Shown here: positions 5,561-63,171 of the stretch, piece by piece | How the letters are laid out: each line of letters starts with the position of its first letter | How positions within the stretch are numbered: the stretch's first letter is position 1 | Virus record (IMG/VR): IMGVR_UViG_3300036851_000176 | Coordinates: 64,001 to 128,000 of that record | Reading direction: 5' to 3' (one strand) | DNA: 64,000 nt | From: a virus | Notes under the pieces: generated by a model | What the model saw: only the letters and a program-made list of their open reading frames with translations | The model's database searches: none | Told to the model about the DNA's origin: nothing | Position numbers and translations under genes: made by a program

Positions 5561-5747
5561 GCAGCCTCCGGCCGAGGTAGCAGGTCGCCGTTCCGGTCGA
5601 TGTCGCCCCAGTCAGCCTGTTCGCGATCTTCCGACTCGAACGAGAGTTGATCCTCGTCACGATCGACATCGATTAGCAGCTGATTCATGATCCTCCTTCC
5701 GCCAGGTCTGCTCTTCAAGAGTTGCGCAGCCTAGCAGTCACAGAACT

Positions 5748-6563
5748 TTACAGAGGGAACTCTGTCAGAACTTTTGGCTCGAAATTTACGACGACCGTGT
5801 GCTCGAACTGAGCGGCTAGAGATCCGTCCATCGTCCAGATGGTCCATCCGTCATCTCCGATCTTCACTTCGGGCGATCCGAGAGTGATGATCGGCTCGAT
5901 CGCGAGTGCCTGTCCCTGGTACAACTTGGCAATCTCGCCCGCGTAAAAGTTCGGGATCTGAGGTTCGTCGTGGTACTTGCTGTTGATCCCATGGCCGCAG
6001 AGTGCGCGGACAATTCCGTATCCTCCCTCCTCAACAACAGTCTCGATCGCTCGCGAAATCTGGCCGACCGTGTTGCCGGGTATGCACCTTGTGATCGCGG
6101 CTCTTAGGGCCAGATTGCAGGTGTAGATGAAGCGCTGGACCTCTGCGGATACGCCGCCGATCGAGAAAGTGAAGGCTGCGTCGGCGTGCATCCCGTCCAC
6201 TGTCACTCCCATGTCGAACGTAAGAACGTCTCCGTCCCTGAGCGACCGCGAGTTCGGGATGCCGTGGGACACCATGTCGTTCGGCATGAAGCACGTTGCG
6301 GCCGGGTATGGCTCATGGATCTCTCCTCGGTGGCGGTAGCCCTTGTTGGTCGGCGTCCCGCCAGCGGTTAGAACGAGGCGCTCTACGCGCTCGTCGAGTT
6401 CGGCTGTGGTGATCCCCGCTTTGGCGTGCTCGCGAACATACCGTGCTGCCTCGGACCAGATAGCGCCAGCCCGCGCTTGAGCCGCTGCGCGACGATCAAT
6501 GGATCCTCGTCGCCGTTCGGCTCTCGCGGCTTCCTTCTTCGCCTGGACAGCAGCTCTACTCAC
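5748..6563 (-). CDS. map: Type I methionine aminopeptidase
   Basis: HGIP, DMG..DGMHADAA, CGHGI..HDEP, AIEP, AAQFEHT metal-ligand motifs. Confidence 0.93.
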   Translation of the reverse strand: MSRAAVQAKKEAARAERRRGSIDRRAAAQARAGAIWSEAARYVREHAKAGITTAELDERVERLVLTAGGTPTNKGYRHRGEIHEPYPAATCFMPNDMVSHGIPNSRSLRDGDVLTFDMGVTVDGMHADAAFTFSIGGVSAEVQRFIYTCNLALRAAITRCIPGNTVGQISRAIETVVEEGGYGIVRALCGHGINSKYHDEPQIPNFYAGEIAKLYQGQALAIEPIITLGSPEVKIGDDGWTIWTMDGSLAAQFEHTVVVNFEPKVLTEFPL

Positions 6564-35118: not shown

Positions 35119-36243
35119 GTGGCTGAAACAAGACAGTGCGGTAAGTGTCGAGAAGACAAGCCCGTGACCGACTTCGACGACACGCGAGTGTCCAACGGAG
35201 TCAGTCGCAAGTGTGAGGCTTGCTACGAAGCAGAGGGCAGAGGCCGACGACCGAACGTCGCCGAGCCAAGCGAGATCGAGAAGTCAACTCTCGAAGCCCT
35301 CAAGAAGCTGGGAGATACGGCGTCAATCGAAGAGATCGCCGACTACGCCGACATCGCGCCGAAGCGAGTGCGCGAGGCTCTGGAATCCCTTGGGCATCAA
35401 GGATTCCGTCTGGAGCACGAGGGAGATCACAAGGTTACCCTCCAGAAAGTCCCCCGACCGAGCACCATGGAGCACAAGGTGCTGTTCAAGGGCGAGACCT
35501 ATCGGTTCGCCATCATCTCCGACGTACACCTCAACTCGAAGCACTGCCGACTCGATGAACTCCACATCGCGTATGACATGGTGGCCTCCGAAGGAATCTC
35601 CGACGTGTACAACCCGGGAGACATCGTGGCCGGTCGCGGCATCTTCAAGGGCCAGGACCACGAGATCATCAACCACACGTTCGAGGCACAGAAATCGTTT
35701 GCGATCGAGAACTACCCGGTGCGTGATGGGGTCACGACCTACATCATCTCCGGGAACCACGACTGCGAAGGCGACTTCGGCAAGGCCGGAGCCGATGCCT
35801 GCCTCGGAGTGGCAAACGAGCGCGAGGACCTGATCTGGGGCGGAATGTATGCCGCCGACTATGTTCTCCCGAACGGAGCCGTGATGACGATGCGGCACCC
35901 GATGGGCGGATCGTCCTACGCGAAGTCGTACAAACCTCAGAAGTTCGCTGAATCGTTCGAGGGCGGCACGAAGCCCGCGATCGTCCTCTTCGGCCACTGG
36001 CACAACTTCGAGGTCGGTTTCCACCGCAACGTGTACATGATCAACTGCGGCACCTTCGAGGGATACGGCGGGACCTTGGGTCTCCGCGTTCCTCTCGGAG
36101 CGCCCGCTGTCGGCTTCACGATCGCCGAAGCAACTCTCGGCGATGACGGATCACTCGTCCGCTTCAAGCACGAGTGGTTCCCGTTCTACGCGGGCCGACG
36201 CATGGGCAAAGGAAAGAGCCGTTCCGGCCGCAAGGCTGCGTAG
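35119..36243 (+). CDS. HTH + calcineurin-like metallophosphoesterase
   Basis: SDVH, GDIV, SGNHD, MRHP, GHWH. Confidence 0.88.
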   Translation: MAETRQCGKCREDKPVTDFDDTRVSNGVSRKCEACYEAEGRGRRPNVAEPSEIEKSTLEALKKLGDTASIEEIADYADIAPKRVREALESLGHQGFRLEHEGDHKVTLQKVPRPSTMEHKVLFKGETYRFAIISDVHLNSKHCRLDELHIAYDMVASEGISDVYNPGDIVAGRGIFKGQDHEIINHTFEAQKSFAIENYPVRDGVTTYIISGNHDCEGDFGKAGADACLGVANEREDLIWGGMYAADYVLPNGAVMTMRHPMGGSSYAKSYKPQKFAESFEGGTKPAIVLFGHWHNFEVGFHRNVYMINCGTFEGYGGTLGLRVPLGAPAVGFTIAEATLGDDGSLVRFKHEWFPFYAGRRMGKGKSRSGRKAA

Positions 36244-36641
36244 TGGGCGGTCTATCCATCCCCGACCGGATTCTCAGTGAGGATGCCACCGAAAGGTGGT
36301 GTCCTTGCTGTGAGACCTGGAAGTTGATGGACCGCCAGCACTTCTATGTCGCCTCGAACACGAAAGCAGGATTTCGTCGGACGTGCAAGGCGTGCCAGAA
36401 ATTGAAAGATGCACGCAATCGACATCTCGAATACAACGGGTATGTCTACATGAATAGAGTCCGGCCGTGGCTGCGCGCTCTCGTCGAGAAACTCGGCTTC
36501 ACCGGTGCAGCCGAAGCCCTCGGCGTCTGGAAAGGCCAATTGGCCGGATGGATGAGCAAGCGCCGCAGACGTATCCAGCGGCGCAACGCGGCCCGCATTC
36601 TCCGCGTGTGCGGAGAGCATGGGATTCGCATCGCTGTTTAG
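36243..36641 (+). CDS. Zn-finger/HTH DNA-binding protein
   Basis: CPCC..CKAC, GAAEALGV. Confidence 0.65.
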   Translation: MGGLSIPDRILSEDATERWCPCCETWKLMDRQHFYVASNTKAGFRRTCKACQKLKDARNRHLEYNGYVYMNRVRPWLRALVEKLGFTGAAEALGVWKGQLAGWMSKRRRRIQRRNAARILRVCGEHGIRIAV

Positions 36642-36642
36642 G

Positions 36643-36713
36643 CTGGCACGGAAGGAATCGAACCTTCATCACTCGGTTAACAGCCGAGGGTTTTACCGTT
36701 AAACTACACGCCA
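36643..36713 (-). tRNA. tRNA-Asn(GTT)
   Basis: cloverleaf, CTCGG-CTGTTAA-CCGAG, GGTTCGATTCC. Confidence 0.9.
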
Positions 36714-36803
36714 TCGATTTACTGCTGTCGCAGTAGTTATTTCGTCAAACCGGCCAATTCCCTGGTCCAGGAAATTAGCCTTCGTGCAACGTTTCCGTTC
36801 AAA

Positions 36804-36879
36804 TGGGGGGTCGCCAGGGACTTGCACCCTGCTCAACCAGAGTCACAGTCTGGGATCTCGCTGCCTAGATTTACGACCC
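36804..36879 (-). tRNA. tRNA-His(GTG)
   Basis: CCAGA-CTGTGAC-TCTGG, C73-CCA, T-loop TGCAAGT. Confidence 0.85.
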
Positions 36880-36881
36880 AG

Positions 36882-36950
36882 CTGGAGAGGCAGGGGTCGA
36901 ACCTGCGCTACGAGGTTCAGAGCCTCGCTGTCTACCATTAACACCCTCCA
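36882..36950 (-). tRNA. tRNA-Gln(CTG)
   Basis: CGAGG-CTCTGAA-CCTCG. Confidence 0.85.
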
Positions 36951-37043
36951 ATGTAGGGAGACCACTCGCTTCCCACCCCGGCTTGGAGACCCCGGTTTGA
37001 TGGGGGTTTATCCTCACGGGCCTTAGCCTTGTCCGTCTCCCAG

Positions 37044-37114
37044 TGGACCGAGAAGGAGTTGAACCTTCACCTCCCGCGCTTCAAGCGGGCGCTCTACCTC
37101 TGAGCTACCAGTCC
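37044..37114 (-). tRNA. tRNA-Phe(GAA)
   Basis: CCCGC-TTGAAGC-GCGGG. Confidence 0.88.
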
Positions 37115-37126
37115 ATGTCTTGCTAG

Positions 37127-37195
37127 CGGGCCAGGAAGGAATCGAACCCTCTCCTAACGGGTTGGAGCCGTTTTGGACACCATGTCCTCTCGCCC
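37127..37195 (-). tRNA. tRNA-Trp(CCA)
   Basis: AACGG-CTCCAAC-CCGTT. Confidence 0.85.
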
Positions 37196-37262
37196 AAGTT
37201 GGACGATCGTGCGCACCGGGGGAATGCTCTTATCACCGGTGCCCAGTGCGCGCGTCGTCCGA

Positions 37263-37335
37263 TCAGGCTGAGAGGATTCGAACCTCTACCGCTCGCTCCC
37301 AAAGCGACCGTGCTGCCGTTGAACACTACAGCCTG
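37263..37335 (-). tRNA. tRNA-Pro(TGG)
   Basis: TCGC-TTTGGGA-GCGA, C1-G72. Confidence 0.9.
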
Positions 37336-37408
37336 TTGTGACTGTCTTCGCGGCTCGAACTTCGGTGCTTATGTGATGGTGCTTGAAGAGAGACGCGCAG
37401 ACAGCGAA

Positions 37409-37471
37409 TTAGACCCCTGGAAACCAGGGGGTATTCGGCTGATGCTGTTGCGATGTCATCTCGATCTTCAT
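37409..37471 (-). CDS. putative leader peptide MKIEMTSQQHQPNTPWFPGV of the Pro/Trp/Phe/Gln/His/Asn tRNA operon
   Basis: ATG 10 nt after -10 box; residues match downstream tRNAs. Confidence 0.75.
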   Translation of the reverse strand: MKIEMTSQQHQPNTPWFPGV

Positions 37472-37481
37472 TGCGCCACCA

Positions 37482-37510
37482 ACGTTACATGAATGGTCGT
37501 GGTCTGTCAA
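37482..37510 (-). promoter_or_regulatory. promoter, tRNA operon 4
   Basis: TTGACA-N17-TAACGT. Confidence 0.75.
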
Positions 37511-37511
37511 G

Positions 37512-37661
37512 CCGAGGCCGCTTGCTCAACCGCCAGTTTCCCAAGCGGCTCAGCGAAGCGGCCCAACACAAGGCCGATATTCCCAGTCGCCGCTGACACG
37601 GCTCCTGACTGCCTCGGATCCGGTGTCAGCCGGAGAGCCGAGCGGGCGCTTGCGCCTCGGA
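37512..37661 (-). ncRNA. unassigned structured RNA
   Basis: Closing CCGAGGC/GCCTCGG; GCTGACAC/GTGTCAGC and GCCGCTT/AAGCGGC stems. Confidence 0.4.
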
Positions 37662-37667
37662 CACGCT

Positions 37668-37868
37668 TCAAACGTCTGGCATCGAGAGGAAGTCCTGGTA
37701 ACTCTCCTGCATGTCGGCCAAGCGTTCCTCGAAAAACTCCCGAATCTCTTCTTCGCTGGCGCGAGGGATCAGAGCAGCAAGGGCATGGTTCATCTCGTCC
37801 GCTGCGTACTCTCGTGTTCTGTCGGGGATCTTCATGATGTGGGGTGGCAGACTATTTGAACGGCTCAT
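37668..37868 (-). CDS. hypothetical protein
   Basis: 66 aa with GGAGG RBS. Confidence 0.55.
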   Translation of the reverse strand: MSRSNSLPPHIMKIPDRTREYAADEMNHALAALIPRASEEEIREFFEERLADMQESYQDFLSMPDV

Positions 37869-37963
37869 GTGATGCCTCCGCTTAGCGGCCTGCCAGCGAC
37901 CTTACGCACTGGTTCTGTTCCCACGCCAGCGTGCGCCCCGCGCGGCCCCGAAGGGCATTTCAG

Positions 37964-38283
37964 TGGAGCCGCCGGGTATCGAACCCGGGTCCGTCTCGTC
38001 CGTACAAACAGATCTTCTAGCAGCTTCGGGGTGGTATACGCCACCTCCACCAGGGCAGACCTTTGGTCTCCGCGTCACCGTTGAATGGGGTCGGTGTCCC
38101 GTCCTACTGGTACATCATCCCGGACTTCTGTTCCTACCGGCCGGGGCGGCGCTCGTGGCCGTTAAGCCGCGAGAGGAAGCACGTATGCTTCGTCGTTTCG
38201 TTTGCCCTCCGGGCCGGTGCGGTAGGCCGCAACCCGCTGCGATCTCCTTGCCGTTTTCGAGGCGTCGAATCCAATTCGGCCCC
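37964..38283 (-). ncRNA. ssrA: tmRNA
   Basis: 5' GGGGCCGAATTGGATTCGAC, 3' GACCCGGGTTCGATACCCGGCGGCTCCA (G3-U70), tag frame ...NDEAYVLPLAA*. Confidence 0.93.
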
Positions 38284-38290
38284 ACACGGG

Positions 38291-38318
38291 ACTATACACA
38301 TTCCGGGCGTTTTGTCAA
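38291..38318 (-). promoter_or_regulatory. tmRNA promoter
   Basis: TTGACA-N16-TATAGT with TG extension. Confidence 0.75.
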
Positions 38319-38572
38319 CCCACCTCGCGCCATATCCCTCGTTCGAGGTACCCGTGCCAGCCATCCTTGTTATCGGCCAACTTCTCCAGGATCGATGGAG
38401 AGACGGTCACGGTGCCGTCCTGGTGCTCGGTCACGTCCCATTCTTCGAGACGTGCGGGGCCAGATCCGTTCGGGAGGCAAACCCACAGGAATCTCGATGG
38501 GCCTCGGAAACAGTAGTCGCCCGCTTCGAGTTCCCACGGCAGCGTGTTATCTGGGCGTCGTCGTCCTTTCAT
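38315..38572 (-). CDS. DUF6527-like protein
   Basis: W..TEH.DGTVTVSPSIL..WHGYL..G.W. Confidence 0.65.
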   Translation of the reverse strand: MKGRRRPDNTLPWELEAGDYCFRGPSRFLWVCLPNGSGPARLEEWDVTEHQDGTVTVSPSILEKLADNKDGWHGYLERGIWREVG

Positions 38573-38774
38573 GTGTTTACCGCAGACGACCCGCGCAAGG
38601 CGGGTCGTCGCGAGACTCAGGATCACCTCCCCGTTAGAAGGGCCACTCTTCCTGTACGGCCACCGCTACGGGGAGGCCGTTGAGTCTTGCCACGTAGACC
38701 ACCTCCTTCCTCCAACAAGGTGAGTCTACCGCAAAGTTTTTGGGCACAAAACATTGCAGTGGTACGCTAAAGGG

Positions 38775-38912
38775 ATGCCAATCGACCCCGAAACTGGACG
38801 CTACTGGACGCCGCGCTATCGATCGAAGTTTGAGGCGGTTCGAACCGTTGCCTCGTGCGTGTCTGCGGTTGGAACGATCTTCGTTCTGCTCAGAGTTTTC
38901 GGCAAGATCTAA
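38775..38912 (+). CDS. small membrane protein
   Basis: Manual translation, 45 aa with C-terminal TM; promoter-like TTGGGC..TACGCT upstream. Confidence 0.45.
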   Translation: MPIDPETGRYWTPRYRSKFEAVRTVASCVSAVGTIFVLLRVFGKI

Positions 38913-38913
38913 G

Positions 38914-38998
38914 CGGCGGGTGAGGGGATCGAACCCCCACAGGTGTTACCCCATCACCGGGTTCAAGCCGGATAAGCACGCCAGCCATGCGACCCGCC
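38914..38998 (-). tRNA. tRNA-Ser(TGA)
   Basis: CCGG-CTTGAAC-CCGG, long V arm, G73. Confidence 0.85.
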
Positions 38999-39070
38999 GA
39001 GTGGACGATGTAACGCATTTTGCGTCACTCTGTCCATTCAAACCATTCCGCAATCGGAACAATTATGAAA

Positions 39071-39151
39071 TGCGCACCCCGGGATTCGAACCCGGACGCC
39101 TCGCGGCACCAGCCTCTCAGACTGGCGTGTCTACCGTTCCACCAGGCGCGC
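39071..39151 (-). tRNA. tRNA-Leu(GAG)
   Basis: CCAGT-CTGAGAG-GCTGG, long V arm. Confidence 0.9.
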
Positions 39152-39187
39152 AAGTGTCAAGTTTTATGGCAAGAAAACTTGACAAAG

Positions 39188-39271
39188 CGGAAGGCCGAGG
39201 TCACGATCCCCACGCCTTTCGGCGCGATCCGGCTAGCAACCGGTCCCCGGGCCATCCCAGGTTGACCTTCC
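39188..39271 (-). tRNA. tRNA-Ser(GCT)
   Basis: CCGG-TTGCTAG-CCGG, long V arm. Confidence 0.85.
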
Positions 39272-39275
39272 GTAG

Positions 39276-39349
39276 TCCCCACGCCAGGATTCGAACCTGG
39301 ATCCCTCCGGTTTGAGCGGAGTGCGTCTGCCGGATTGCGCCACGCGGGG
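39276..39349 (-). tRNA. tRNA-Leu(CAA), short variable arm
   Basis: CTCCG-CTCAAAC-CGGAG. Confidence 0.88.
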
Positions 39350-39359
39350 CTATGTCGAG

Positions 39360-39446
39360 TACGGGAGGCGGGAGTCGAACCCGCACGTCCTTTCGGACAC
39401 CGATTTCTGAGACCGGCGCGTCTACCGAGATTCCAGCCACTCCCGT
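39360..39446 (-). tRNA. tRNA-Leu(CAG)
   Basis: CCGGT-CTCAGAA-ATCGG. Confidence 0.9.
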
Positions 39447-39454
39447 ATGTCGAG

Positions 39455-39527
39455 AGCCGATGGCAGGAATCGAACCTGCGTGGACGGGGTTGCAATCCGT
39501 CGCCTGGGACCACTCGGCCACATCGGC
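39455..39527 (-). tRNA. tRNA-Cys(GCA)
   Basis: loop TTGCAAC, U73. Confidence 0.9.
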
Positions 39528-39528
39528 T

Positions 39529-39602
39529 TGGTGGGCGCCCTAGGATTTGCACCTAGTCCTGCGGGGTTACGGCCCGGAATGCTCTAACTACACCAGACGC
39601 CC
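39529..39602 (-). tRNA. tRNA-Tyr(GTA), short variable arm
   Basis: CGGG-CCGTAAC-CCCG, encoded ACCA. Confidence 0.8.
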
Positions 39603-39609
39603 AAGTAGG

Positions 39610-39666
39610 TCAGTCCGCCGAGGCGGACTGGCTAAGACTTAGGCAATACAACTGGTGCGCGAACAT
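39610..39666 (-). CDS. putative leader peptide MFAHQLYCLSLSQSASAD of the Tyr/Cys/Leu/Ser tRNA operon
   Basis: ATG 10 nt after -10 box; LYCLSLS core; stop 7 nt before tRNA-Tyr. Confidence 0.75.
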   Translation of the reverse strand: MFAHQLYCLSLSQSASAD

Positions 39667-39676
39667 AACGTGCCGG

Positions 39677-39705
39677 AGTATAGACGAAGATTGCTGATTT
39701 CGCAA
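39677..39705 (-). promoter_or_regulatory. promoter, tRNA operon 3
   Basis: TTGCGA-N17-TATACT. Confidence 0.75.
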
Positions 39706-39928
39706 GTATCTTCTCTACTTGAGCAATCAGAGGTACTCGACGTGAAGAGTTCCGCCGAAGGGGAGGGTGCCATCGAAGAGGAACATTCCAAGTTCGTCAC
39801 CTTGGTAGGCCAGAATCGAGGGTATTTTCCTCGCGATCTTCTTGCTCCAGCGCCCACGCCGAGATGATCTTTCCAAGAGGAGGATCCGGAAAGAGGGGAC
39901 GACCCAGTTCGTCTCGATCGTCGGGCAC

Positions 39929-40189
39929 TTACTTCGCCTGGAACATCGGCTTCAGCCGAGGTCGCGTCTCTGGCTTAGGGTCTCCCTCGTCCTCTGGGTA
40001 ATCCACCGGCTGGCCCGAGATGCTGATGTCTCCTGTCCCGTTTTCTACAATCCTGTTCACGTTGTATCGGACGCGAAAGTCGTTCGAGTAGACATCGTTG
40101 TCGATTTCTAGGGTCTCTCCTTCTCCCGGAAGCAGCACATACCCAACCGCGAAGACAAAGCAGTTATCCGTGTGGTTCGTGAGGATCAT
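39929..40189 (-). CDS. hypothetical protein
   Basis: 86 aa ORF. Confidence 0.6.
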   Translation of the reverse strand: MILTNHTDNCFVFAVGYVLLPGEGETLEIDNDVYSNDFRVRYNVNRIVENGTGDISISGQPVDYPEDEGDPKPETRPRLKPMFQAK

Positions 40190-40192
40190 GAC

Positions 40193-40579
40193 TCAGGCCG
40201 GGTAAGGAACGATGTTGTACAGGACCACCAGAATCCCGCTGGCTACCGATCCTCCCGTCACATGAGCACTGATCTTTCCATCCTCGCTGGCAATGGATTT
40301 GATCCCGGATCCGAGTTCCGCCAAAACCGCGTAAGACGTGGCCGGAATGGAAGAGCCGGATGTGATCGAGTTGTCGGCTCCGATCCCTACACCCAACGAT
40401 CCAGATCCAGAGAACGCTTTCAGGACGACTACGGTGCTGACGATTGCCCAGCCCTTCGGAATCAGATCTCCGAATTCGTAGGTTCCGGCAGAAAGACCGG
40501 GGCGAGCATCGAAGGTGGCGACCTTTGAGGTTTGTCCACCCTTCATCAGGGCGTAAATCTCTGAAAGGGGAGCAGTCAT
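40193..40579 (-). CDS. hypothetical beta-rich protein
   Basis: Leaderless ATG 6 nt after TACACT. Confidence 0.6.
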   Translation of the reverse strand: MTAPLSEIYALMKGGQTSKVATFDARPGLSAGTYEFGDLIPKGWAIVSTVVVLKAFSGSGSLGVGIGADNSITSGSSIPATSYAVLAELGSGIKSIASEDGKISAHVTGGSVASGILVVLYNIVPYPA

Positions 40580-40606
40580 GGTGCGAGTGTACCATGCAAA
40601 ATCAGG

Positions 40607-40679
40607 AGCCGGGGAGAGGAGTCGAACCCCCACCGCAACCGTACAAAGGGTGCATGCTAGCCATTAACACCACCCCGGC
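40607..40679 (-). tRNA. tRNA-Thr(TGT)
   Basis: loop TTTGTAC, GCC 5' end. Confidence 0.85.
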
Positions 40680-40735
40680 TCGATCGTTCACTGGTGCAAG
40701 AAACTACGTTATGACTTAGTTTTCCGCACCAGTAG

Positions 40736-40808
40736 AGGCCCTAGGAGGATTCGAACCCCCGACTCACGCGGTAGAAACGCGCAGCTCTGTCCCCTGAGCT
40801 ACAGGGCC
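40736..40808 (-). tRNA. tRNA-Arg(TCT)
   Basis: GCGCG-TTTCTAC-CGCGT, GGA in D loop. Confidence 0.88.
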
Positions 40809-40838
40809 TTGGTAGTCATTACACGTACGATGTATCTG

Positions 40839-40929
40839 TCAGGCGCTAGTCTCCCTTGACCACTCCTGCCTCTCGTCCGCTGGTACCCGCTCGCGAGCGC
40901 ACGCCGGAATCGAACCGGCCGTCTCCTGA
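40839..40929 (-). ncRNA. circularly permuted tRNA-like RNA (Y RNA/YrlA-like candidate)
   Basis: T arm GCCGG-TTCGATT-CCGGC lies 5' of D-arm-like TGGTC-AAGGGA-GACTA; closed by TCAGG/CCTGA. Confidence 0.55.
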
Positions 40930-40931
40930 AG

Positions 40932-41003
40932 TGGATCCCCGAGGACTCGAACCCCGATCTCATGGCTTAAAAGGCCAGACTCTGCCTGTTGAGTTAGAGA
41001 TCC
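40932..41003 (-). tRNA. tRNA-Lys(TTT)
   Basis: TGGC-CTTTTAA-GCCA. Confidence 0.88.
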
Positions 41004-41045
41004 ATGTGCCGCAATTGGAAGGGGATGCGGCCAACCGTCTTCGAG

Positions 41046-41118
41046 TGGACCGGCCGAGATTCGAACTCGGATCGCACGCGGTGCAAGCGCGGCAGGTTCC
41101 CATTACGCCCACCAGCCC
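41046..41118 (-). tRNA. tRNA-Ala(TGC)
   Basis: loop CTTGCAC, G3-U70. Confidence 0.88.
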
Positions 41119-41129
41119 AGGTGTTGCTA

Positions 41130-41204
41130 TCGGCCGAGGAGGATTCGAACCTCCGACTGACACGGGTTCGAAGCCCGCCGCTCTGTCCACTGAGCTACCA
41201 GCCG
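41130..41204 (-). tRNA. tRNA-Arg(TCG)
   Basis: GCGGG-CTTCGAA-CCCGT. Confidence 0.88.
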
Positions 41205-41212
41205 TTATGTAG

Positions 41213-41285
41213 TGCGGCGAGCAAGAGTCGAACTTGCGTCCTCCGGGTTCGCAACCCGGCGCTCTGTCCTCTGAGCTATCGTCGC
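41213..41285 (-). tRNA. tRNA-Arg(GCG)
   Basis: CCGGG-TTGCGAA-CCCGG. Confidence 0.88.
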
Positions 41286-41334
41286 GCGTGTCATGCAATA
41301 CACGTTTTTCATGTACAACGTGACAGTCTTGCAG

Positions 41335-41407
41335 TGGCGCCCCGAGGACTTGCACCCCGTTCGCGCGGCTTAAGAGGCCGGACTCTGGCTCGTTGAGTTA
41401 GAGCGCC
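41335..41407 (-). tRNA. tRNA-Lys(CTT)
   Basis: CGGC-CTCTTAA-GCCG. Confidence 0.85.
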
Positions 41408-41415
41408 ATATGTAG

Positions 41416-41486
41416 TAGGCATCCAGAGACTTGAACTCCGATCTCCTGGGTGTAGGCCAGGTGTCCTCCCATTGGACGAGACGCCT
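41416..41486 (-). tRNA. tRNA-Val(TAC)
   Basis: CCTGG-CCTACAC-CCAGG. Confidence 0.82.
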
Positions 41487-41499
41487 ATGTTGTTTCGAG

Positions 41500-41572
41500 T
41501 GGACCGGGGAGCGATCGAATCTCCCGCCTCTCCTTTATCAGAGGAGCGCTCTGCCGTCTGAGCTACCAGTCC
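41500..41572 (-). tRNA. tRNA-Ile(GAT)
   Basis: CTCCT-CTGATAA-AGGAG. Confidence 0.88.
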
Positions 41573-41593
41573 ATGTTCCGTGCTGGACTGCGG

Positions 41594-41689
41594 CTATGCG
41601 ACGGTAATGCGCGTCGCGGCCAGCACGGTGCGGACGACGGTTCTCGTCGTTCGCTTGAGTTTCCTCTGTGCTGTCCGCGTGAAGTTCAT
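41594..41689 (-). CDS. putative leader peptide MNFTRTAQRKLKRTTRTVVRTVLAATRITVA of the Ile/Val/Lys/Arg/Ala/Thr tRNA operon
   Basis: Leaderless ATG 7 nt after -10; 25 of 31 residues are I/V/K/R/A/T. Confidence 0.8.
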   Translation of the reverse strand: MNFTRTAQRKLKRTTRTVVRTVLAATRITVA

Positions 41690-41696
41690 GATCGTG

Positions 41697-41724
41697 ACCT
41701 TAGCAGGTTTCGAGAAAAAGTCAA
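41697..41724 (-). promoter_or_regulatory. promoter, tRNA operon 2
   Basis: TTGACT-N16-TAAGGT with TG extension. Confidence 0.75.
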
Positions 41725-41725
41725 G

Positions 41726-41798
41726 AGCCACCGATCGGATTTGAACCGATCCTACAACGTTGGCAACGTTGCGTGCTACCGCTAGACACTACGGTGGC
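41726..41798 (-). tRNA. tRNA-Gly(GCC)
   Basis: CAACG-TTGCCAA-CGTTG, U73. Confidence 0.88.
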
Positions 41799-41927
41799 AA
41801 ATGGAGAGCCTAGGTCCTCAGTTATTCCCCGCCGGGGAGGACTCCACGGCATCACTCCTAAGAGTGGCGGGCCAGATGTCTCCGATGTCAACTCTCCTGG
41901 GAGACCCACGGTCTTTGGTTTTTCCAG

Positions 41928-42001
41928 AGCGCCTGCTCGGATTCGAACCGAGACTGCCAGCTTGGAAGGCTGGCGTGCTGACCGTTAAACACTACGGGCG
42001 C
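41928..42001 (-). tRNA. tRNA-Gly(TCC)
   Basis: CCAGC-CTTCCAA-GCTGG. Confidence 0.92.
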
Positions 42002-42029
42002 GTGCTTGCCATGGTACCTGAAACGAGAG

Positions 42030-42101
42030 CGGGTCTACGGAGGATCGAACTCCGATCTGTGCCTCGACAGGGCACCGTCCTAGCCATTGAACGACAGACC
42101 C
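42030..42101 (-). tRNA. tRNA-Asp(GTC)
   Basis: GTGCC-CTGTCGA-GGCAC, G73. Confidence 0.9.
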
Positions 42102-42194
42102 AAGGATGAGGAGTGAGCGGTGCAAATCGACCACCCTCATCAGCAACTCCTGTCCGGATGCATCCCCGGCTCAGGTCAGCAGCGTCCTACTGAG

Positions 42195-42268
42195 TGTCCC
42201 GACCGGGATTCGAACCCGGGTCGCCGCCGTGAGAGGGCGGTATCCTAGACCAACTAGACGATCAGGAC
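42195..42268 (-). tRNA. tRNA-Glu(CTC)
   Basis: CCGCC-CTCTCAC-GGCGG. Confidence 0.92.
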
Positions 42269-42320
42269 GTATCGGGGTTCTTCATCTCCGGGCCTGAACC
42301 CGAAGCGAGTGCTACCCCAG

Positions 42321-42394
42321 TGCCACCGGCGGGATTCGAACCCGCATCGCCGAGCTTGAAAGGCTCGCATCCTAAGCCATTAGACGACGTTGGC
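42321..42394 (-). tRNA. tRNA-Glu(TTC)
   Basis: CGAGC-CTTTCAA-GCTCG. Confidence 0.9.
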
Positions 42395-42395
42395 A

Positions 42396-42680
42396 AGTCC
42401 CCTTGCGGGGAGCGCCCAGTCCGCTTGCCCTCTACCGGGGGCCGACCGGGCAATGATTGAGGCACCTGCGGGCCGTGCCTCCCTGCGCCCTCCGGAGAAT
42501 CCATGAGGCTGCGAGCGGTGGAGAGTCGATCGCGCCTGGGATGTCAATTCGGGAGGGTCATGACTCCCTCCCGACCTGGCCGTCGCCAGGATTTCAGTGT
42601 TGCTCCGTCGAGCACCCCTCGGCCCGGACAACCGCCGGGACGGAAACGCGAGAGGCCACTGTCTCCGGGTTTCCCCTTCG
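42396..42680 (-). ncRNA. unassigned multi-stem RNA between tRNA-Met and tRNA-Glu
   Basis: At least six hairpins, e.g. CCTGGC-GACG-GCCAGG, TCGGGAGGG/CCCTCCCGA, GAGGCAC/GTGCCTC, TCCCC-GCAA-GGGGA. Confidence 0.5.
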
Positions 42681-42682
42681 AG

Positions 42683-42755
42683 TAGCGGGTACGGGAGTCG
42701 AACCCGCTGTCTTCGGCTTATGAGGCCGCTGTGGAAGCCGTTTCACTCCCCCGCT
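42683..42755 (-). tRNA. tRNA-Met(CAT)
   Basis: CGGC-CTCATAA-GCCG. Confidence 0.85.
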
Positions 42756-42761
42756 CGTCGG

Positions 42762-42789
42762 AGTATACATGCCGGAGATGGCATGTCAA
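42762..42789 (-). promoter_or_regulatory. promoter, tRNA operon 1
   Basis: TTGACA-N16-TATACT; ACATGCC/GGCATGT inverted repeat spans the spacer. Confidence 0.8.
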
Positions 42790-42793
42790 GGGC

Positions 42794-43162
42794 TTACTTG
42801 CAGTTCTGTGGATCGACCGCCTGGACGTTCTCCGGCTTCACGACTCCGTTGGGGATCTGAAACAGGAAGTCTCCACAGGCCGACTGACTTCCGTCTGCGT
42901 TCGACACGACGGCCAGGCACTCGAAGCGAATGGAGTTCTTGGGATCCTGAGCACACTTCACGATGCGCGCGATCTGGATTCCTTCGGCTGCCTCGGCCTT
43001 GTTGAAGTCTCGCTTCAGCGCGATCCCGGCTTTCTGCGTCACCGTCAGGGGTTTCGGCTTGGGCTTCGAGTCACCGCCCGTCGTCAAGACGATCGCGGCA
43101 ACAACGGCAGCTACTACGACCACGGCGAGTACGGCGTAACTGACGATCTGGTTGCGCTTCAT
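42794..43162 (-). CDS. membrane-anchored/secreted protein
   Basis: N-terminal TM, four Cys. Confidence 0.7.
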   Translation of the reverse strand: MKRNQIVSYAVLAVVVVAAVVAAIVLTTGGDSKPKPKPLTVTQKAGIALKRDFNKAEAAEGIQIARIVKCAQDPKNSIRFECLAVVSNADGSQSACGDFLFQIPNGVVKPENVQAVDPQNCK

Positions 43163-43668
43163 GGCTTTCCTTTCTCTTGAGGGATAGGTGGCGGCAATGC
43201 GTAAAAGACGAACTTACCGGGCTTGTTCGACCGTCCCGATCTATGAACCGCTACCGGAGCGGCTCCTTGTTGCCGACTCTGCGTGGTTGCTTCGACACAC
43301 TGCTTATGCAAGTCACGGTCGTACGGCAATTTGTACCCTCGCGGCTCGTCCGGGATCGACGAATACCCAAACGGACTTGCGTAATGCTTCTGCGGAATGA
43401 GCCAGAGATAGATCGCTCCGGTGCTGGGATCGGATTGGTCCTGTGGTTCGACGACATGACAACCCGCGAAAATGCTCTTCCTTGGCGGCTCGTTCGGAGT
43501 CGGCCATCCCGTGCCAGTGACTCTATAGTGGATCACAGTGAAATTGAGGCCGACGACGACCAGGATGGCGGCAAGTTTCAGCCCCCAGTACCCCCATCCC
43601 TTTGCACAAATCGCCCAGAGCAGAATCGCGTCTAGGATCGTCAGGGAGAGAAAGAGGCTAGAGATCAC
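43159..43668 (-). CDS. membrane protein (TolQ-like module)
   Basis: 2 TM, IYLW...PRGYKLPY..LH. Confidence 0.7.
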   Translation of the reverse strand: MISSLFLSLTILDAILLWAICAKGWGYWGLKLAAILVVVGLNFTVIHYRVTGTGWPTPNEPPRKSIFAGCHVVEPQDQSDPSTGAIYLWLIPQKHYASPFGYSSIPDEPRGYKLPYDRDLHKQCVEATTQSRQQGAAPVAVHRSGRSNKPGKFVFYALPPPIPQEKGKP

Positions 43669-44321
43669 GGGGCGCCCCCGCCGTAGTAGTCAGGAGCGCG
43701 CGTACCGTTTCCGCCGGAGGAGTCATAAGACACTCCTGCACTTGGATCAGCGGAGTAAACGACGTTCTTGGGAAGTTCGTTGTGTCCCGTCATTCTCCCC
43801 TTGGCATCGAGAGTGAAACGGAAAGGAGTCAGCGCCTGTCCCTCTCGGACAAGGACTACGTTGCGAGAGATCAGAGACTTGTCGTTGCCACGCAATCGCC
43901 ACAGTTCGACATGTACCTTGATGCTTCCTCGATCACTCTTCATGTAGAGATGAACGTTGACCGAATACTCACCCACGACCGCTCCCCTGATGACGACTCG
44001 TTCTCCGTTCTGAACCACCCTGACGGATCCTTCGGTCTCGGACGCTGCGGTTCCGAGGTCGTCGTGCTCAAGGTGCATGAGACCGACGCTGTCGGAACCG
44101 AAGTAAACGACGTTTCCTTCGGGATCCTCGACGTAAAGATCCACGTCATCATTCGATCCGTCCTTCCATGAGATCGTGACCGCGTACACACCCAGCGTGT
44201 CCACGGCCGTCGTCTTCTTGGGTGGCGGCTGAAGAAGAACGAGGATGATGAGAAGGAGACAGAACAGCGTATCGATCGCTGCCCATGCGACCGCCGCCCT
44301 AGCGCTGTCGCGGTGTGGCAT
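43665..44321 (-). CDS. single-TM protein with YfaP/DUF2135-like domain
   Basis: TM with Asp (IDTLF), W...DDVDLYVEDPEG, GEYSVNVHLY. Confidence 0.7.
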   Translation of the reverse strand: MPHRDSARAAVAWAAIDTLFCLLLIILVLLQPPPKKTTAVDTLGVYAVTISWKDGSNDDVDLYVEDPEGNVVYFGSDSVGLMHLEHDDLGTAASETEGSVRVVQNGERVVIRGAVVGEYSVNVHLYMKSDRGSIKVHVELWRLRGNDKSLISRNVVLVREGQALTPFRFTLDAKGRMTGHNELPKNVVYSADPSAGVSYDSSGGNGTRAPDYYGGGAP

Positions 44322-49227: not shown

Positions 49228-49520
49228 TCCATGCTGTAGGGATCGTAGTTGCTGAATGCTTCAATCTGGAACTCTCCGGCCGCTAGTGTTGTCCAATCCG
49301 GATAGAGACCATCGAGTCCAACGTGGTAAACCTCGTGCGCGACCATGCAGTCGTACGCTTCTGTCTTCGTTCCGGGAATCAACGGATCCTCTTCCTCGAA
49401 CTTCGGGCAGTCGTCCGGATGAACAACCTCCCACTCGCGGTACGGAATGTGAGTCTCCGGATCTCTTGCTTCCAGTTCGGTGATGATCAGAAGATGGGGT
49501 TTGCTTACAGATTCGGCCAC
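49188..49520 (-). CDS. hypothetical protein
   Basis: 110 aa, acidic. Confidence 0.6.
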   Translation of the reverse strand: MAESVSKPHLLIITELEARDPETHIPYREWEVVHPDDCPKFEEEDPLIPGTKTEAYDCMVAHEVYHVGLDGLYPDWTTLAAGEFQIEAFSNYDPYSMEWDGGLRLLEDEE

Positions 49521-51643
49521 TGATGCGTCCCTTCTGGCTTCTTCAGTCCGGCGCCTTTGAGCAGATCCATCACATCATCTCCAAACACTTCCTTCTCCTC
49601 GACCATGCGTGAAGCAATCTCCCCCACGGCGTTCTTGTTCTGAAGGATCGTGTTGTACGCGATCAGGAAAGCGTGACCGAGCAGAAGAGCCTCATCTCTG
49701 CGCTTGTCAGGAGGTAGTGGGATGTCGCCGGGATTTCCGATCGTAAGGAGTTGCTTGCCGAGTTTCTCCATGCTGCGCAGATCGTCTCGCGACAAGTTGG
49801 GCGGGAGGATCGGAGCCATGCCCCACCGACCTACCATTGTTCCGGCAAGCGCCGAGGCGCTGCCCAGGTCTCCTCCAACTCCCTGCGTGTTGTGACCGTA
49901 GAAGACGATCTCAGCTGCGTAGGCGCCCAGGCCCCAGATCAGATTCGAGAAAAGTTCGTCTCGCGTACGGAACGTGCGCTCCTCGGTTCCGATCGCCTGG
50001 TGGTGACCGCCAGTCTCGCCTCGTCTCCTGATACTCAGCCGTGTACTCTCGTGATCCTCCATGAAGAGGTAAGAACAAACTGCGTGACCGGCTTCGTGGA
50101 TCGCCGTCGAACGCTCCTCCATTTCAGACTCGTATCCCCATCCGAGAGCGGTTCCGGCCTCGTTCGTGACCATCGCTTCTGTCAGATCTTCCCGCGAGAA
50201 GGCGTGGCGACCGTCGTGGTGCGCATACGTTAGAGCCAACGAGCACGCCTGCTCGATCTGAGCAGGGGAATACCCTTCCATCATGCGTGCGAGTTCGTCG
50301 CGGGCCTCTGATGAGTCCAGAGAGTCCTCGTGTGCGACCTTGCCGAGGTACAGATCCAGGATGTCGATGCGGTCTTTCTTGGTCGGAGTTCGGAAATGAA
50401 TGTGGCGTCCCATGCGTCCGGGACGAACGAGCGCCGGGTCGAGTGCGCTCAGTGGAACGTTCGTCGCGCCGACAAAGTAGATCTGATTCCCAGTGGGCTT
50501 GGCGTGCGGAAGACGTAGGGGTACGTCGCCCAGACGACGCGGGACGATGTAACTGGCATCGAGCCAAGTGTTGACCTTGTTCGTCATGACCCGCTTCATG
50601 AACGGGGGCGAATCGATACCGTCCATGACGACGAGGAGCTGGTTGATCGCCATGCCGCCTCCGTACATGCCGCCCATGGCACCACCGGGGATCTGAGGCT
50701 TCGTAAACCCTCCCAATCCGCCGCCGCCCAGGCTACCTCTTCGCATTCCCACGGCGTCGATTTCGTCGATGAAAACGATGCACTGTCCACCCCACTTCGC
50801 GGCCAACTTGCGCGCCTTGCGCGCCATGTAGCGGACGATGATGACATCCATGCCGATGAAGGTCTGCGCGAAGCCAGAGCCGGGGATCGTCACGAGCGGG
50901 CAGTTGAACCCGGTCGCGATGGCCTTGGCGAGCATCGTCTTACCGACGCCAGGGGCGCCGAGGAAGAGGATGCCGCGCTCGCGCTTGCCGCCAGCGCTCA
51001 CGAACTTCTCGCCGGACTGCCAGAGCGTGATGACCTTGTGGATCTCTTCCTTCGCTTCCTTCTGGCCGCGCACGTCCTCAAGACGCACGCCCCAGTCTGC
51101 GTCACCCGGCTCAAAGCCTCGGATCTGCGACACACCCATCATCATCATGGGGCCGAAGAACAGGAGAAAGTTCGCGAGGAAGAAGATCGGCAGGATGATC
51201 AGCTGCATCAGGACCTGCGGATTGGAGAGCAGAGAAAGGCCGCTCCATAGCCACTCGGCGTTGCTTCCCCACGTCCCGCCACGCTTGAGCCAGGTCAGCG
51301 TGATCAAGGACAGCACGATGACGATCCAGCGCAACTTCTTGGACCAGAAGTGAATGCGTCTGCGGTTGAGCGCATCCTCGGCTCTCAATTCGTCCGAGTT
51401 CGTTCCATACAGGCTCGCAAAGGGGACCAACTTGCGGTACACCAGATCGAGAAATCCACGCAGAACGAGCACGCAAGAGGCCAGCGCCAAAGACCCGGTG
51501 GCGGAACGTCCCTGATGGAGGTAGAACAAGAACACCATCGGGAATGTAAAGGCCGTGATCAGGTTCGCGACGAGATTGAAAGAGCGTCGCTGGCGGCGCA
51601 GATACTCCTGCTGGTCTACCGAATCAATCGCAACGTCAGACAC
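49505..51643 (-). CDS. FtsH-like membrane AAA+ / M41 Zn protease
   Basis: ~4 N-terminal TMs, GAPGVGKT, FIDEID, DPALVRPGR, HEAGH, AEIV, GDL. Confidence 0.9.
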   Translation of the reverse strand: MSDVAIDSVDQQEYLRRQRRSFNLVANLITAFTFPMVFLFYLHQGRSATGSLALASCVLVLRGFLDLVYRKLVPFASLYGTNSDELRAEDALNRRRIHFWSKKLRWIVIVLSLITLTWLKRGGTWGSNAEWLWSGLSLLSNPQVLMQLIILPIFFLANFLLFFGPMMMMGVSQIRGFEPGDADWGVRLEDVRGQKEAKEEIHKVITLWQSGEKFVSAGGKRERGILFLGAPGVGKTMLAKAIATGFNCPLVTIPGSGFAQTFIGMDVIIVRYMARKARKLAAKWGGQCIVFIDEIDAVGMRRGSLGGGGLGGFTKPQIPGGAMGGMYGGGMAINQLLVVMDGIDSPPFMKRVMTNKVNTWLDASYIVPRRLGDVPLRLPHAKPTGNQIYFVGATNVPLSALDPALVRPGRMGRHIHFRTPTKKDRIDILDLYLGKVAHEDSLDSSEARDELARMMEGYSPAQIEQACSLALTYAHHDGRHAFSREDLTEAMVTNEAGTALGWGYESEMEERSTAIHEAGHAVCSYLFMEDHESTRLSIRRRGETGGHHQAIGTEERTFRTRDELFSNLIWGLGAYAAEIVFYGHNTQGVGGDLGSASALAGTMVGRWGMAPILPPNLSRDDLRSMEKLGKQLLTIGNPGDIPLPPDKRRDEALLLGHAFLIAYNTILQNKNAVGEIASRMVEEKEVFGDDVMDLLKGAGLKKPEGTHQWPNL

Positions 51644-61776: not shown

Positions 61777-63171
61777 TCAGTCTTTGTACGGATCGAAGGT
61801 GTCGGGCGACGCCATCACGACGCCGAGAGGTCGCAGCACTTCGAGCACTTCGATGTTCGAGTGCGCCTCGATCACGTCAGCCAGCGGCTTGTACACGCCC
61901 GGGCTTTCGTCCGCCCCCGCTCCGAGCACGCAGATTCCGCGACCCTTGAGGTCGTCGCGCGCGAAATCCCAGTCGATCGCGGCCGTGCTCTTGTCGCGCG
62001 TGCGCACCTTGCGCATTTTGTGCTCGTGCTCGGGCGGCGGCTTGTTTCCCTCCGAGCGAACCTGGAAGTCACAGTCGCGCTCACTACATACCCACATCTT
62101 GCGCAACTTGCCCGCCGCAGCAGTGCGGGACATGACGCGACCGGCCCCATGAGGGGCGCTGCCGATCGCGCCAATGTCCACGACAGTTTTTCCGTTTCGA
62201 GACCAGTCCTCATAGGCATCGAGTTCGATCTCTGACGGAGGCCAAGAAACCTTTCCCTTCACGATCACGCTGATGTCTCCCATGCTTCCGCCGATGAAGG
62301 CGGGTTCTGTTGTCAGCGGAGTCGCCCCCTTGCGCACAACCCATAGCCCGTTCTCGAACCACGCGTAATTGTGATGGTTGTGGACGGTCGCTGTCACTTC
62401 GGGATTTCCGAGGATGCCAAGCACCTGCTCGATTACGAACTCGCGACCTGCATATGCGTACTCGCCCGCGAGTTGCATCGCAGCAACATAGAATGTTCCG
62501 AGTTCTTCTTTCGTGCTGAACACGACCCCGTTCTCGCTCTCTTTCGTTCGATCGGTGAAATCGAGACCTTCAGCTGCGGCCATGAACCCGGAAGCGATCG
62601 AGTGTCCAAGTCCGCGCGAGCCGAAGTGGTTCGCGATCCAGACGTTGCCTTCGTCGTCGTAGAGCAAGTCCACGTAGTGATTGCCGGAACCGACCGTGCC
62701 GAGTTGGGCGCGAGCCTTCTCCTTCAGGTCCGTTCCAAACTGTCGGTTGATTTCGCTCCAAATTGCGGAGTCGAAAAGTTCATGTTCAACAGGCGTTTTG
62801 CTCTTTCCGCCAACACCGAACTCGACCTTCTTCTGGATCTCGCGCATGATTGGCTTGAGCCGTTCGACGAACAGGTCAGGCTTCGCGTAGTCCTCGACAT
62901 CGGTCACGTCCACGAGTTCGTTGACGGTGAGGTCCGTGCGCACGGCCATGTTCCCGCACGCGATGTCGTATCCGACGCCAGTCGGGCTGATGTGGTCCTC
63001 GTAGGCCACGACGCCGCCGATGGGCATCGCGTAGCCGAGATGGTGGTCGGCCATCAAGGCGCCCTTGACCGCCCCCGGGTGGCTCAGACAGTTCGCCATC
63101 TGATCGATGGCGTTCTCGTAAGGCTCGATGCCCTCGGGGTGGAAGACTGTGAAGTTTGGGGTATCAATCAC
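61777..63171 (-). CDS. rtcB: RtcB RNA ligase
   Basis: MADHH.GY..PIGGV, VGYDIACG, GTVGSGNHY, HNHHN, RKGAT, GSMG, HGAGRVMSR, DESPGVYK. Confidence 0.95.
   Translation of the reverse strand: MIDTPNFTVFHPEGIEPYENAIDQMANCLSHPGAVKGALMADHHLGYAMPIGGVVAYEDHISPTGVGYDIACGNMAVRTDLTVNELVDVTDVEDYAKPDLFVERLKPIMREIQKKVEFGVGGKSKTPVEHELFDSAIWSEINRQFGTDLKEKARAQLGTVGSGNHYVDLLYDDEGNVWIANHFGSRGLGHSIASGFMAAAEGLDFTDRTKESENGVVFSTKEELGTFYVAAMQLAGEYAYAGREFVIEQVLGILGNPEVTATVHNHHNYAWFENGLWVVRKGATPLTTEPAFIGGSMGDISVIVKGKVSWPPSEIELDAYEDWSRNGKTVVDIGAIGSAPHGAGRVMSRTAAAGKLRKMWVCSERDCDFQVRSEGNKPPPEHEHKMRKVRTRDKSTAAIDWDFARDDLKGRGICVLGAGADESPGVYKPLADVIEAHSNIEVLEVLRPLGVVMASPDTFDPYKD

Follow-up and report, generated by a model that had tools for sequence, protein, structure and literature searches.

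Short leader open reading frames match the tRNA blocks behind them in an uncultured soil phage: a candidate attenuation system for tRNA genes

Background

Why phages carry tRNA genes, and how these genes are controlled, has been debated for decades. The DNA analysed here is a 64,000-nt stretch (hereafter the window) that spans bases 64001-128000 of the 146,625-bp IMG/VR record IMGVR_UViG_3300036851_000176, an uncultured soil phage with about 58% G+C. It raises the question in a specific form: what is the connection between blocks of tRNA genes and the short open reading frames (ORFs) at their heads, when each ORF encodes the amino acids served by the tRNAs behind it? An initial annotation of the locus had read these ORFs as leader peptides of attenuators that sense tRNA depletion. 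The comparisons described below indicate that a translation-based link between leader and tRNA block is very probably real, and we favour, with a probability of roughly 0.55, ribosome-mediated attenuation applied to tRNA genes, in which stalling of the ribosome on the leader gives more tRNA.

Phage tRNAs have been linked to host nucleases that cut tRNAs, and the papers on phage tRNAs and on tRNA-targeting defence do not mention leader ORFs (PMC10264068, PMC11464382). The novelty claim of the initial annotation agrees with our full-text literature search, in which no paper on leader ORFs controlling tRNA genes was found.

Leader ORFs and tRNA blocks in the window

Every tRNA gene of the whole 146.6-kb record lies at window positions 36641-42755, on the minus strand; all features of the cluster described below are on that strand and are given in window coordinates. 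The strand reads as four promoter-led blocks, exactly the units of the initial annotation, which together cover all 20 amino acids and have no amino acid in common. When 28 genes were placed at random, such a non-overlapping split arose in 4 of 1,000,000 trials; tandem duplication accounts for part of this regularity. Protein genes sit between units 2, 3 and 4. The original count of 28 tRNAs stands for 27, which are backed by ARAGORN and/or Rfam, 24 of them at default settings and the other three being Met-CAT (42755-42683), Leu-CAG (39446-39360) and Lys-CTT (about 41407-41334). The 28th, a Ser-GCT-like copy at about 39272-39190, has an altered T-loop and an odd D-arm and is called by neither program; its homologue in a relative (see below) is a good Ser-GCT gene that is called, and the copy in the window may be decaying.

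Unit 2 begins with a promoter-like site, TTGACT-16-TAAGGT (41697-41724), and the ATG of a 31-codon ORF (41594-41689) lies 7 nt past its -10 box; the tRNAs Ile, Val, Lys-CTT, Arg-GCG, Arg-TCG, Ala, Lys-TTT, Arg-TCT and Thr follow at 40605-41572. In unit 3, the promoter-like site TTGCGA-17-TATACT (39677-39705) is followed after 10 nt by the ATG of an 18-codon ORF (39610-39666), and then by Tyr, Cys, Leu-CAG, Leu-CAA, the degenerate Ser-GCT-like copy, Leu-GAG and Ser-TGA (38913-39602). Unit 4 has the same arrangement, with TTGACA-17-TAACGT at 37482-37510, an ATG again 10 nt after the -10 box, a 20-codon ORF at 37409-37471, and Pro, Trp, Phe, Gln, His and Asn at 36641-37335. The distance from the end of the leader ORF to the first tRNA is 7-73 nt. 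Three units headed by ORFs of 18-31 codons, with ATG 7-10 nt after the -10 box, is what the initial annotation had described.

Each of the three leaders contains all amino acids of its own unit. The composition is Thr8 Arg6 Ala4 Val4 Lys2 Ile1 for unit 2, where five different Arg codons and both Lys codons are used, Ser4 Leu3 Tyr1 Cys1 for unit 3, and Gln3 Pro3 His1 Asn1 Trp1 Phe1 for unit 4. Own-unit residues make up 25/30, 9/17 and 10/19 of the leaders of units 2, 3 and 4, where the background is 0.39, 0.19 and 0.19 (binomial P of 7e-7, 1.6e-3 and 1.1e-3), and the joint probability of coverage and enrichment, given the phage's own amino-acid usage, is <3e-6, 5e-4 and 3e-4, respectively. The same leaders fit the sets of the other units poorly, with 0-5 residues and several amino acids missing.

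Could these be small protein genes or chance ORFs, whose match to the tRNAs arose by accident or merely reflects common descent? GC-rich DNA gives many short ORFs. Set against this are the joint probabilities just given, at most 5e-4 for every leader, and a direct comparison with ATG ORFs of similar length in the genome: coverage and enrichment together single out two of the leaders uniquely (1 of 246 and 1 of 363 ORFs), and for the third unit the leader and one other ORF pass (2 of 390). The claim that the leaders cover their own units and are enriched for them, and the expectation that they would stand apart from random short ORFs, are thus both upheld.

Composition follows tRNA content in related genomes

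A search with the capsid protein found a 146,274-bp metagenome contig at NCBI, with 69% capsid identity, and a 21-kb Logan contig. With a 20-nt piece of the anticodon arm of tRNA-Tyr as the query, a complete 89-kb IMG/VR genome was found, along with a fragment of that phage. These three relatives, the 146-kb contig, the Logan contig and the 89-kb genome, carry six further leaders.

The blocks of the 146-kb relative are rearranged, with their membership kept. The order there is Met, Glu; then Tyr, Cys, Leu, Ser, Ser; then protein genes, followed by Asp and by Gly, Gly, Ile, Val, Lys, Arg, Ala, Arg, Thr, Arg; and, after more genes, Pro, Trp, Gln, Phe, His, Asn. Three of these blocks are headed by ORFs of 16, 27 and 21 codons, each of which covers the amino acids of its block; the leader peptides differ in sequence from those of the window. 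The Logan contig has a 21-codon leader ahead of Pro, Trp, Gln, Phe, His and Asn. The 89-kb genome has two small convergent blocks, placed between the terminase and portal genes (about 7.6-8.3 kb), which have a bidirectional hairpin in common. One consists of Gln, Pro, Asn, His and a Trp-CCA with a reduced D-arm, called by relaxed ARAGORN only, behind a 16-codon leader; the other consists of Tyr, Cys and Leu behind a 10-codon leader.

Among the nine leader/block pairs of the four genomes, amino acids of the block are present in the leader in 47 of 47 cases, vs 38 of 124 for non-block amino acids (Fisher P 6.5e-19, for pairs that are homologous cassettes and not phylogenetically independent). 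When leaders and blocks were re-paired at random, the observed fit was reached in 2 of 100,000 trials. The differences in tRNA content between genomes are also followed. The Tyr-Cys-Leu block of the 89-kb genome is without a Ser tRNA, and its leader has no Ser, as compared with 4 and 6 in the other two leaders of this type; the Gln-Pro-Asn-Trp-His block of the same genome is without a Phe tRNA, and its leader has no Phe, as compared with 1, 1 and 2 in the others. In the 146-kb relative, Gly tRNAs stand behind the Ile/Val/Lys/Arg/Ala/Thr leader, which has two Gly codons, and the corresponding leader in the window has none. All nine pairs are thus complete, and three gains or losses track the tRNAs, as would be expected from the suggestion that composition co-varies with the downstream anticodons in related clusters.

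The start codon is placed exactly 7 nt past the -10 box in five of the nine leaders and 9-10 nt past it in three; the remaining leader has instead a good Shine-Dalgarno sequence and a GTG start. Translation signals therefore appear to be kept by different means among the leaders.

Some tRNA blocks are without a leader, and this is one of the points that weigh against the model favoured here. Unit 1 of the window has a promoter-like site, TTGACA-16-TATACT (42762-42789), with tRNA-Met directly next and no leader ORF between them, and its tRNAs are Met-CAT, Glu-TTC, Glu-CTC, Asp-GTC, Gly-TCC and Gly-GCC (41725-42755). No convincing leader was found in it: the spacer between Met and Glu has ORFs that continue into the tRNA, and these are unremarkable in their content of Glu, Asp and Gly. 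A separate Phe-Arg pair in the 89-kb genome (L048, 1429-1572) likewise has no matching leader, and only a 4-codon ORF upstream. Such leaders are not found at every tRNA block, which, together with the homology of the compared cassettes and the abundance of short ORFs in GC-rich DNA, is what speaks for chance. Against chance, the peptides diverge while the rule holds, and their composition shifts with tRNA content.

Other searches gave no further relatives with such a cluster. Near and distant DNA searches of INPHARED returned no near relative and only scattered tRNA matches, and for proteins encoded within the cluster or next to it, neither IMG/VR nor a set of 5.8 billion proteins contained a relative. 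IMG/VR relatives found via the capsid (51-55% identity) and via the portal gene of the 89-kb genome have no tRNAs nearby, nor does a capsid relative at 62% identity. Capsid relatives at 62-73% identity are limited to short Logan contigs. A pattern scan with the unit 4 leader peptide gave one chance match; the tRNA-Tyr 20-mer retrieved from the metagenome collection only the 89-kb genome and chance or unrelated matches; and a tRNA-Tyr 5' pattern gave 64 matches in IMG/VR, without a further relative. In the tRNA-rich phages G008 (30 tRNAs), G007 and G006, the tRNAs are not grouped in this way and matching leaders are absent. Grouping by amino acid is also absent from Mycobacteriophage ScoobyDoobyDoo and Streptomyces phage Karimac, for which the comparison covered the tRNA genes and not the ORFs upstream of them.

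The same rule in Cellulophaga phage phi38:1

The cultured Cellulophaga phage phi38:1 (NC_021796, 34800-39200) has three tRNA blocks with the same layout. Each consists of a promoter-like box of about 35 nt, found in three copies, an ORF of 25-29 codons, a canonical hairpin with a U-run, and the tRNAs. All own-block amino acids are present in each ORF, and own-block residues make up 17/24, 15/28 and 17/28; matched to the other blocks, the ORFs have 2-8 residues, and mostly three or four amino acids are missing. The first ORF is partly annotated, as hypothetical protein gp066. The two systems are alike in having promoter, block-covering ORF, RNA structure and tRNA block in this order, in three units per genome, but there is no sequence similarity between them. 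The terminators of phi38:1 are canonical hairpins with U-runs, 40-70 nt past the stop codon, and its ORFs are not leaderless, whereas the leaders of the window have their hairpin on the stop codon, without a U-run and ending just before the first tRNA.

When block 1 of phi38:1 was folded with a ribosome masked at the stop codon, the terminator could form, whereas an alternative pairing was favoured in the free RNA. By this model, block 1 has the classical layout, in which stalling would give read-through.

The rule holds in two unrelated phage groups with unrelated hosts, which therefore leaves hardly any room for chance, and we regard chance or small protein genes as a very improbable explanation of the leaders. 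Translation-based sensing is preferred because only it explains why the composition of the ORF follows the tRNAs behind it.

Hairpins at the stop codon and the sign of the response

Each leader of the window has a hairpin at its 3' end, as the initial annotation had stated (z-scores here are computed against dinucleotide shuffles). The structure of unit 2 (41578-41628, z=-3.0) has an outer stem of 9 bp, within which lie the last codons and the stop; the structure ends 5 nt upstream of tRNA-Ile. The hairpin of unit 3 (39611-39630, z=-3.2) has 8 bp and a tetraloop, with its last bases in the stop codon, 8 nt before tRNA-Tyr. In unit 4, a 7-bp hairpin (37414-37430, z=-4.8) is formed from the Pro-Trp-Phe-Pro codons and ends 2 nt before the stop; a second stem-loop, long and imperfect, lies between leader and tRNA-Pro (37341-37405). 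A stop-codon hairpin is found in nine of nine leaders, with z from -1.4 to -4.8 (mean -2.7). The stems of the nine hairpins are unrelated in sequence, therefore structure and not sequence is kept. The hairpin is 5-73 nt before the first tRNA in the window and 3-73 nt over all nine leaders, and in six of nine its end is 3-10 nt from the first tRNA.

How would such a hairpin be connected to the leader? Several observations weigh against attenuation in its textbook form, and with it against more tRNA on stalling. The hairpins have no U-run, and a terminator scan leaves them uncalled in the window and in the relatives; the same scan does call a hairpin with a T-run that ends another RNA in the 146-kb relative. 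Minimum-energy folds of the leaders give no clear mutually exclusive antiterminator. Neither the leader ORF, paired with the 5' strand of the first tRNA, nor the hairpin 3' arm with the spacer, paired with that tRNA, does better than shuffled sequence. The codons of the leaders are no rarer than synonymous usage in the genome. Several leader codons are unread by the anticodons of the block itself, such as Leu TTG, CTA, CTT and CTC where the only Leu tRNA is Leu-CAG, and Gln CAA. A ribosome stalled on the Tyr or Cys codons of the Tyr-Cys-Leu(-Ser) leaders, 15-23 nt upstream of the hairpin, would leave the hairpin intact. Finally, a translating ribosome represses terminators that lie a few bp past a stop codon (PMC4824070). 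A hairpin in contact with the stop codon should likewise be suppressed once a ribosome reaches the stop, which in the simplest reading gives the opposite sign. The proposal of attenuation made in the initial annotation is borne out in one part, a functional, translation-based link of leader and block that the sequence comparisons support. Its further parts, read-through on stalling, the hairpin as a terminator or processing gate, and a purpose in counter-defence against tRNA nucleases, stay hypothetical, with hairpins that are without U-runs and neither an antiterminator nor significant leader-tRNA pairing found.

The opposite sign deserves a separate account. Here the hairpin would be a pause site or weak terminator, melted only by a ribosome that reaches the stop codon, so that stalling would lower transcription of the block and the phage would avoid adding tRNA that cannot be charged. 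The overlap or contact of hairpin and stop codon in nine of nine leaders and the failure to find an antiterminator agree with this, as does the presence, in all three Tyr-Cys-Leu leaders, of a codon for every sensed amino acid so far upstream that the hairpin would stay formed when a ribosome stalls there. The frequent mismatch of Leu and Gln codons with the anticodons of the block would fit sensing of the amino acid or of charging rather than of one tRNA species. Yet in unit 4 of the window, the Trp and Phe codons lie inside the hairpin, and a stall there would melt it; block 1 of phi38:1 is of the classical kind, with read-through on stalling; and shutting off a tRNA that is lacking would defeat any role in counter-defence. 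The 47 of 47 coverage is also easier to understand if shortage induces the block. Coverage would be complete, including rare Trp, Cys and His, because a missing codon would mean a failed response when stalling is to give more tRNA. The RNA repair genes of the window and of the 146-kb relative, described below, also speak for more tRNA on stalling. On balance, the opposite sign seems to us rather unlikely, while being the most serious competitor of induction by stalling.

A post-transcriptional role is less likely still, and we consider it improbable. The ribosome or the hairpin would act as a 5' stabiliser or as a processing gate, controlling 5'-to-3' decay or the access of RNase P or RNase E at the first tRNA, and transcription would not be regulated. 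There is precedent in the ermC leader of Bacillus, where ribosome stalling stabilises the downstream RNA. The absence of U-runs fits, and so does the position of six of the nine hairpins, which end 3-10 nt short of the first tRNA, in the region that RNase P contacts on its substrate. But the hairpin is near the first tRNA only, and yet the leader covers the amino acids of the whole block; leader-tRNA pairing is not significant; and phi38:1 has canonical terminators.

A model of the leaders

In the explanation that we favour, attenuation with more tRNA on stalling, each of the three blocks would have its own promoter and give a single RNA, which would carry a short translated ORF at its 5' end or a few bases from it. 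The position of the first ribosome on this ORF would set the yield of mature tRNAs from the block. Slow decoding of any of the covered amino acids would hold the ribosome on the leader, which would thereby report the supply of exactly the aminoacyl-tRNAs that its block serves. The result would be negative feedback, in which stalling leads to more read-through, or better survival, of the block; the controlled step may be termination, pausing, Rho action or processing.

A more detailed version is offered tentatively, as somewhat less likely than the general model. In it, the tRNA supply would be self-regulating: if host tRNAs were lost to anticodon nucleases or through phage-induced decay, stalling at codons of a block's own amino acids would switch that block on and supply the matching phage tRNAs within seconds, and the response would be shut off when decoding recovers, the switch being the stop-codon hairpin of a leaderless ORF, without a canonical terminator.

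Comparison with known regulatory systems

The closest parallel is with the multivalent attenuators of amino-acid operons, such as thr, ilvGMEDA and ilvBN in enterobacteria and ilvBNC in Corynebacterium glutamicum (PMC11857589). These also have a short 5' ORF enriched in codons for several amino acids, an RNA structure by the stop codon, and the speed of the ribosome as the signal. In the window, a short 5' ORF is present on what is presumably the same transcript as the regulated genes, and it is enriched in cognate codons; the intrinsic terminator that attenuators have between leader and regulated genes, a hairpin with a U-run, is absent there. The targets differ, being tRNAs for the sensed amino acids and not biosynthetic enzymes. 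Unlike the known attenuators, the leaders of the window often have one or few codons per amino acid and no runs, the hairpin is without a U-run or a detectable terminator/antiterminator pair, and most ORFs of this type appear to be leaderless, judging by the predicted transcription starts.

Leaderless sensory ORFs are known from mycobacteria, where short poly-Cys ORFs act as attenuators of a 'ribulon' (bioRxiv 10.1101/834739), and in M. tuberculosis cleavage of tRNA-Cys by the VapC4 toxin makes ribosomes stall at Cys codons (PMC13096801). As apparently in the window, the sensory ORF is the first cistron and leaderless; the stalled ribosome alters the downstream RNA structure, and loss of a tRNA by a nuclease is a demonstrated input. 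The mycobacterial structure hides the ribosome-binding site of a protein gene, whereas in the window the tRNAs come next, without such a site, and leaders of the window type cover four to seven amino acids, as opposed to one.

In conditional termination that is Rho-dependent and linked to upstream ORFs, as in the tna operon, a translated upstream ORF likewise decides on continuation without a canonical intrinsic terminator. Conditional termination has been mapped by Term-seq in M. tuberculosis (bioRxiv 10.1101/2022.06.01.494293). In contrast to such systems, the leaders described here leave little room for Rho loading. Control by Rho seems unlikely, because the leaders are short (33-96 nt), their C-over-G excess, expected of a Rho site, is not consistent among them, and structured tRNA follows at once.

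T-box riboswitches resemble the proposed system in that they sense tRNA charging in cis and control translation-related genes. They have no ORF, and bind the tRNA directly through a specifier codon. Rfam gave no T-box match at window positions 35500-44000 at E up to 0.1, and only tRNA and tmRNA-type matches.

The system can therefore be described, as far as can be read from sequence, as a probable variant of ribosome-mediated attenuation with tRNA genes as its target, which is unpublished as far as our literature search shows. If this is true, no earlier case would be known in which the decoding of their own amino acids regulates tRNA genes. The leaders would then show directly which tRNA pools a phage monitors; they would explain why isoacceptors stay together in blocks; and they would provide compact, programmable parts for responding to the loss of any tRNA of choice. 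The window contributes a GC-rich and probably leaderless version, as well as a variant without a canonical terminator, and together with its relatives it adds natural co-variation by gain and loss across four genomes.

Gene neighbourhood and other elements of the clusters

The window also encodes a lambda-E-type capsid protein, a tape measure protein, a DnaB-like helicase, an FtsH-like AAA protease (49505-51643, minus strand) and an RtcB RNA ligase (61777-63171, minus strand). The best genome matches of the latter are in Thermoleophilia and Paenibacillus, at 42-47% identity. A gene for transfer-messenger RNA (tmRNA) at 38283-37961, in the same minus-strand region, has its own promoter-like site, TTGACA-16-TATAGT, so that the unit spans 37961-38318. 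The 146-kb relative has an RNA ligase of family PF09414 between its tRNA blocks (5453-6268). The full tRNA set, tmRNA, RtcB and FtsH-like protease in the window, and the RNA ligase in the relative, together suggest a lineage specialised in keeping translation running; RtcB and the ligase of the relative fit a conflict over tRNA integrity.

Within the long Met-Glu spacer of unit 1, a stretch of about 37 nt (window positions about 42452-42414, minus strand) is near-identical in the 146-kb relative (about 2990-3030), and the rest of the spacer is not alignable between the two. In both genomes it lies within an ORF that runs into tRNA-Glu. The stretch may represent a structured RNA or a remnant, or else serve the Glu, Asp and Gly genes as a leader.

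The interval from unit 3 to the gene upstream of the tmRNA contains a 19-codon ORF (38693-38634, minus strand). Its Shine-Dalgarno sequence is very strong, and a GC-rich hairpin of 10 bp (38609-38585) comes after the ORF; no tRNA follows, and a match in composition is not obvious. The 146-kb relative has, between its Tyr block and the tmRNA (4310-4655), a unit of about 300 nt with a promoter-like site and a canonical terminator at its ends. The unit contains no notable ORF, has no Rfam match and no counterpart in the genome of the window, and in folding stability it does not exceed shuffles (z=-0.65). In the Logan relative (190-575 and 1180-1540), a duplicated 5' tRNA fragment and then an ORF of about 110 codons stand ahead of tRNA-Pro and of tRNA-Phe. 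These ORFs have HNH-like Cys/His motifs, and the arrangement looks like insertions of homing endonucleases into the tRNA genes.

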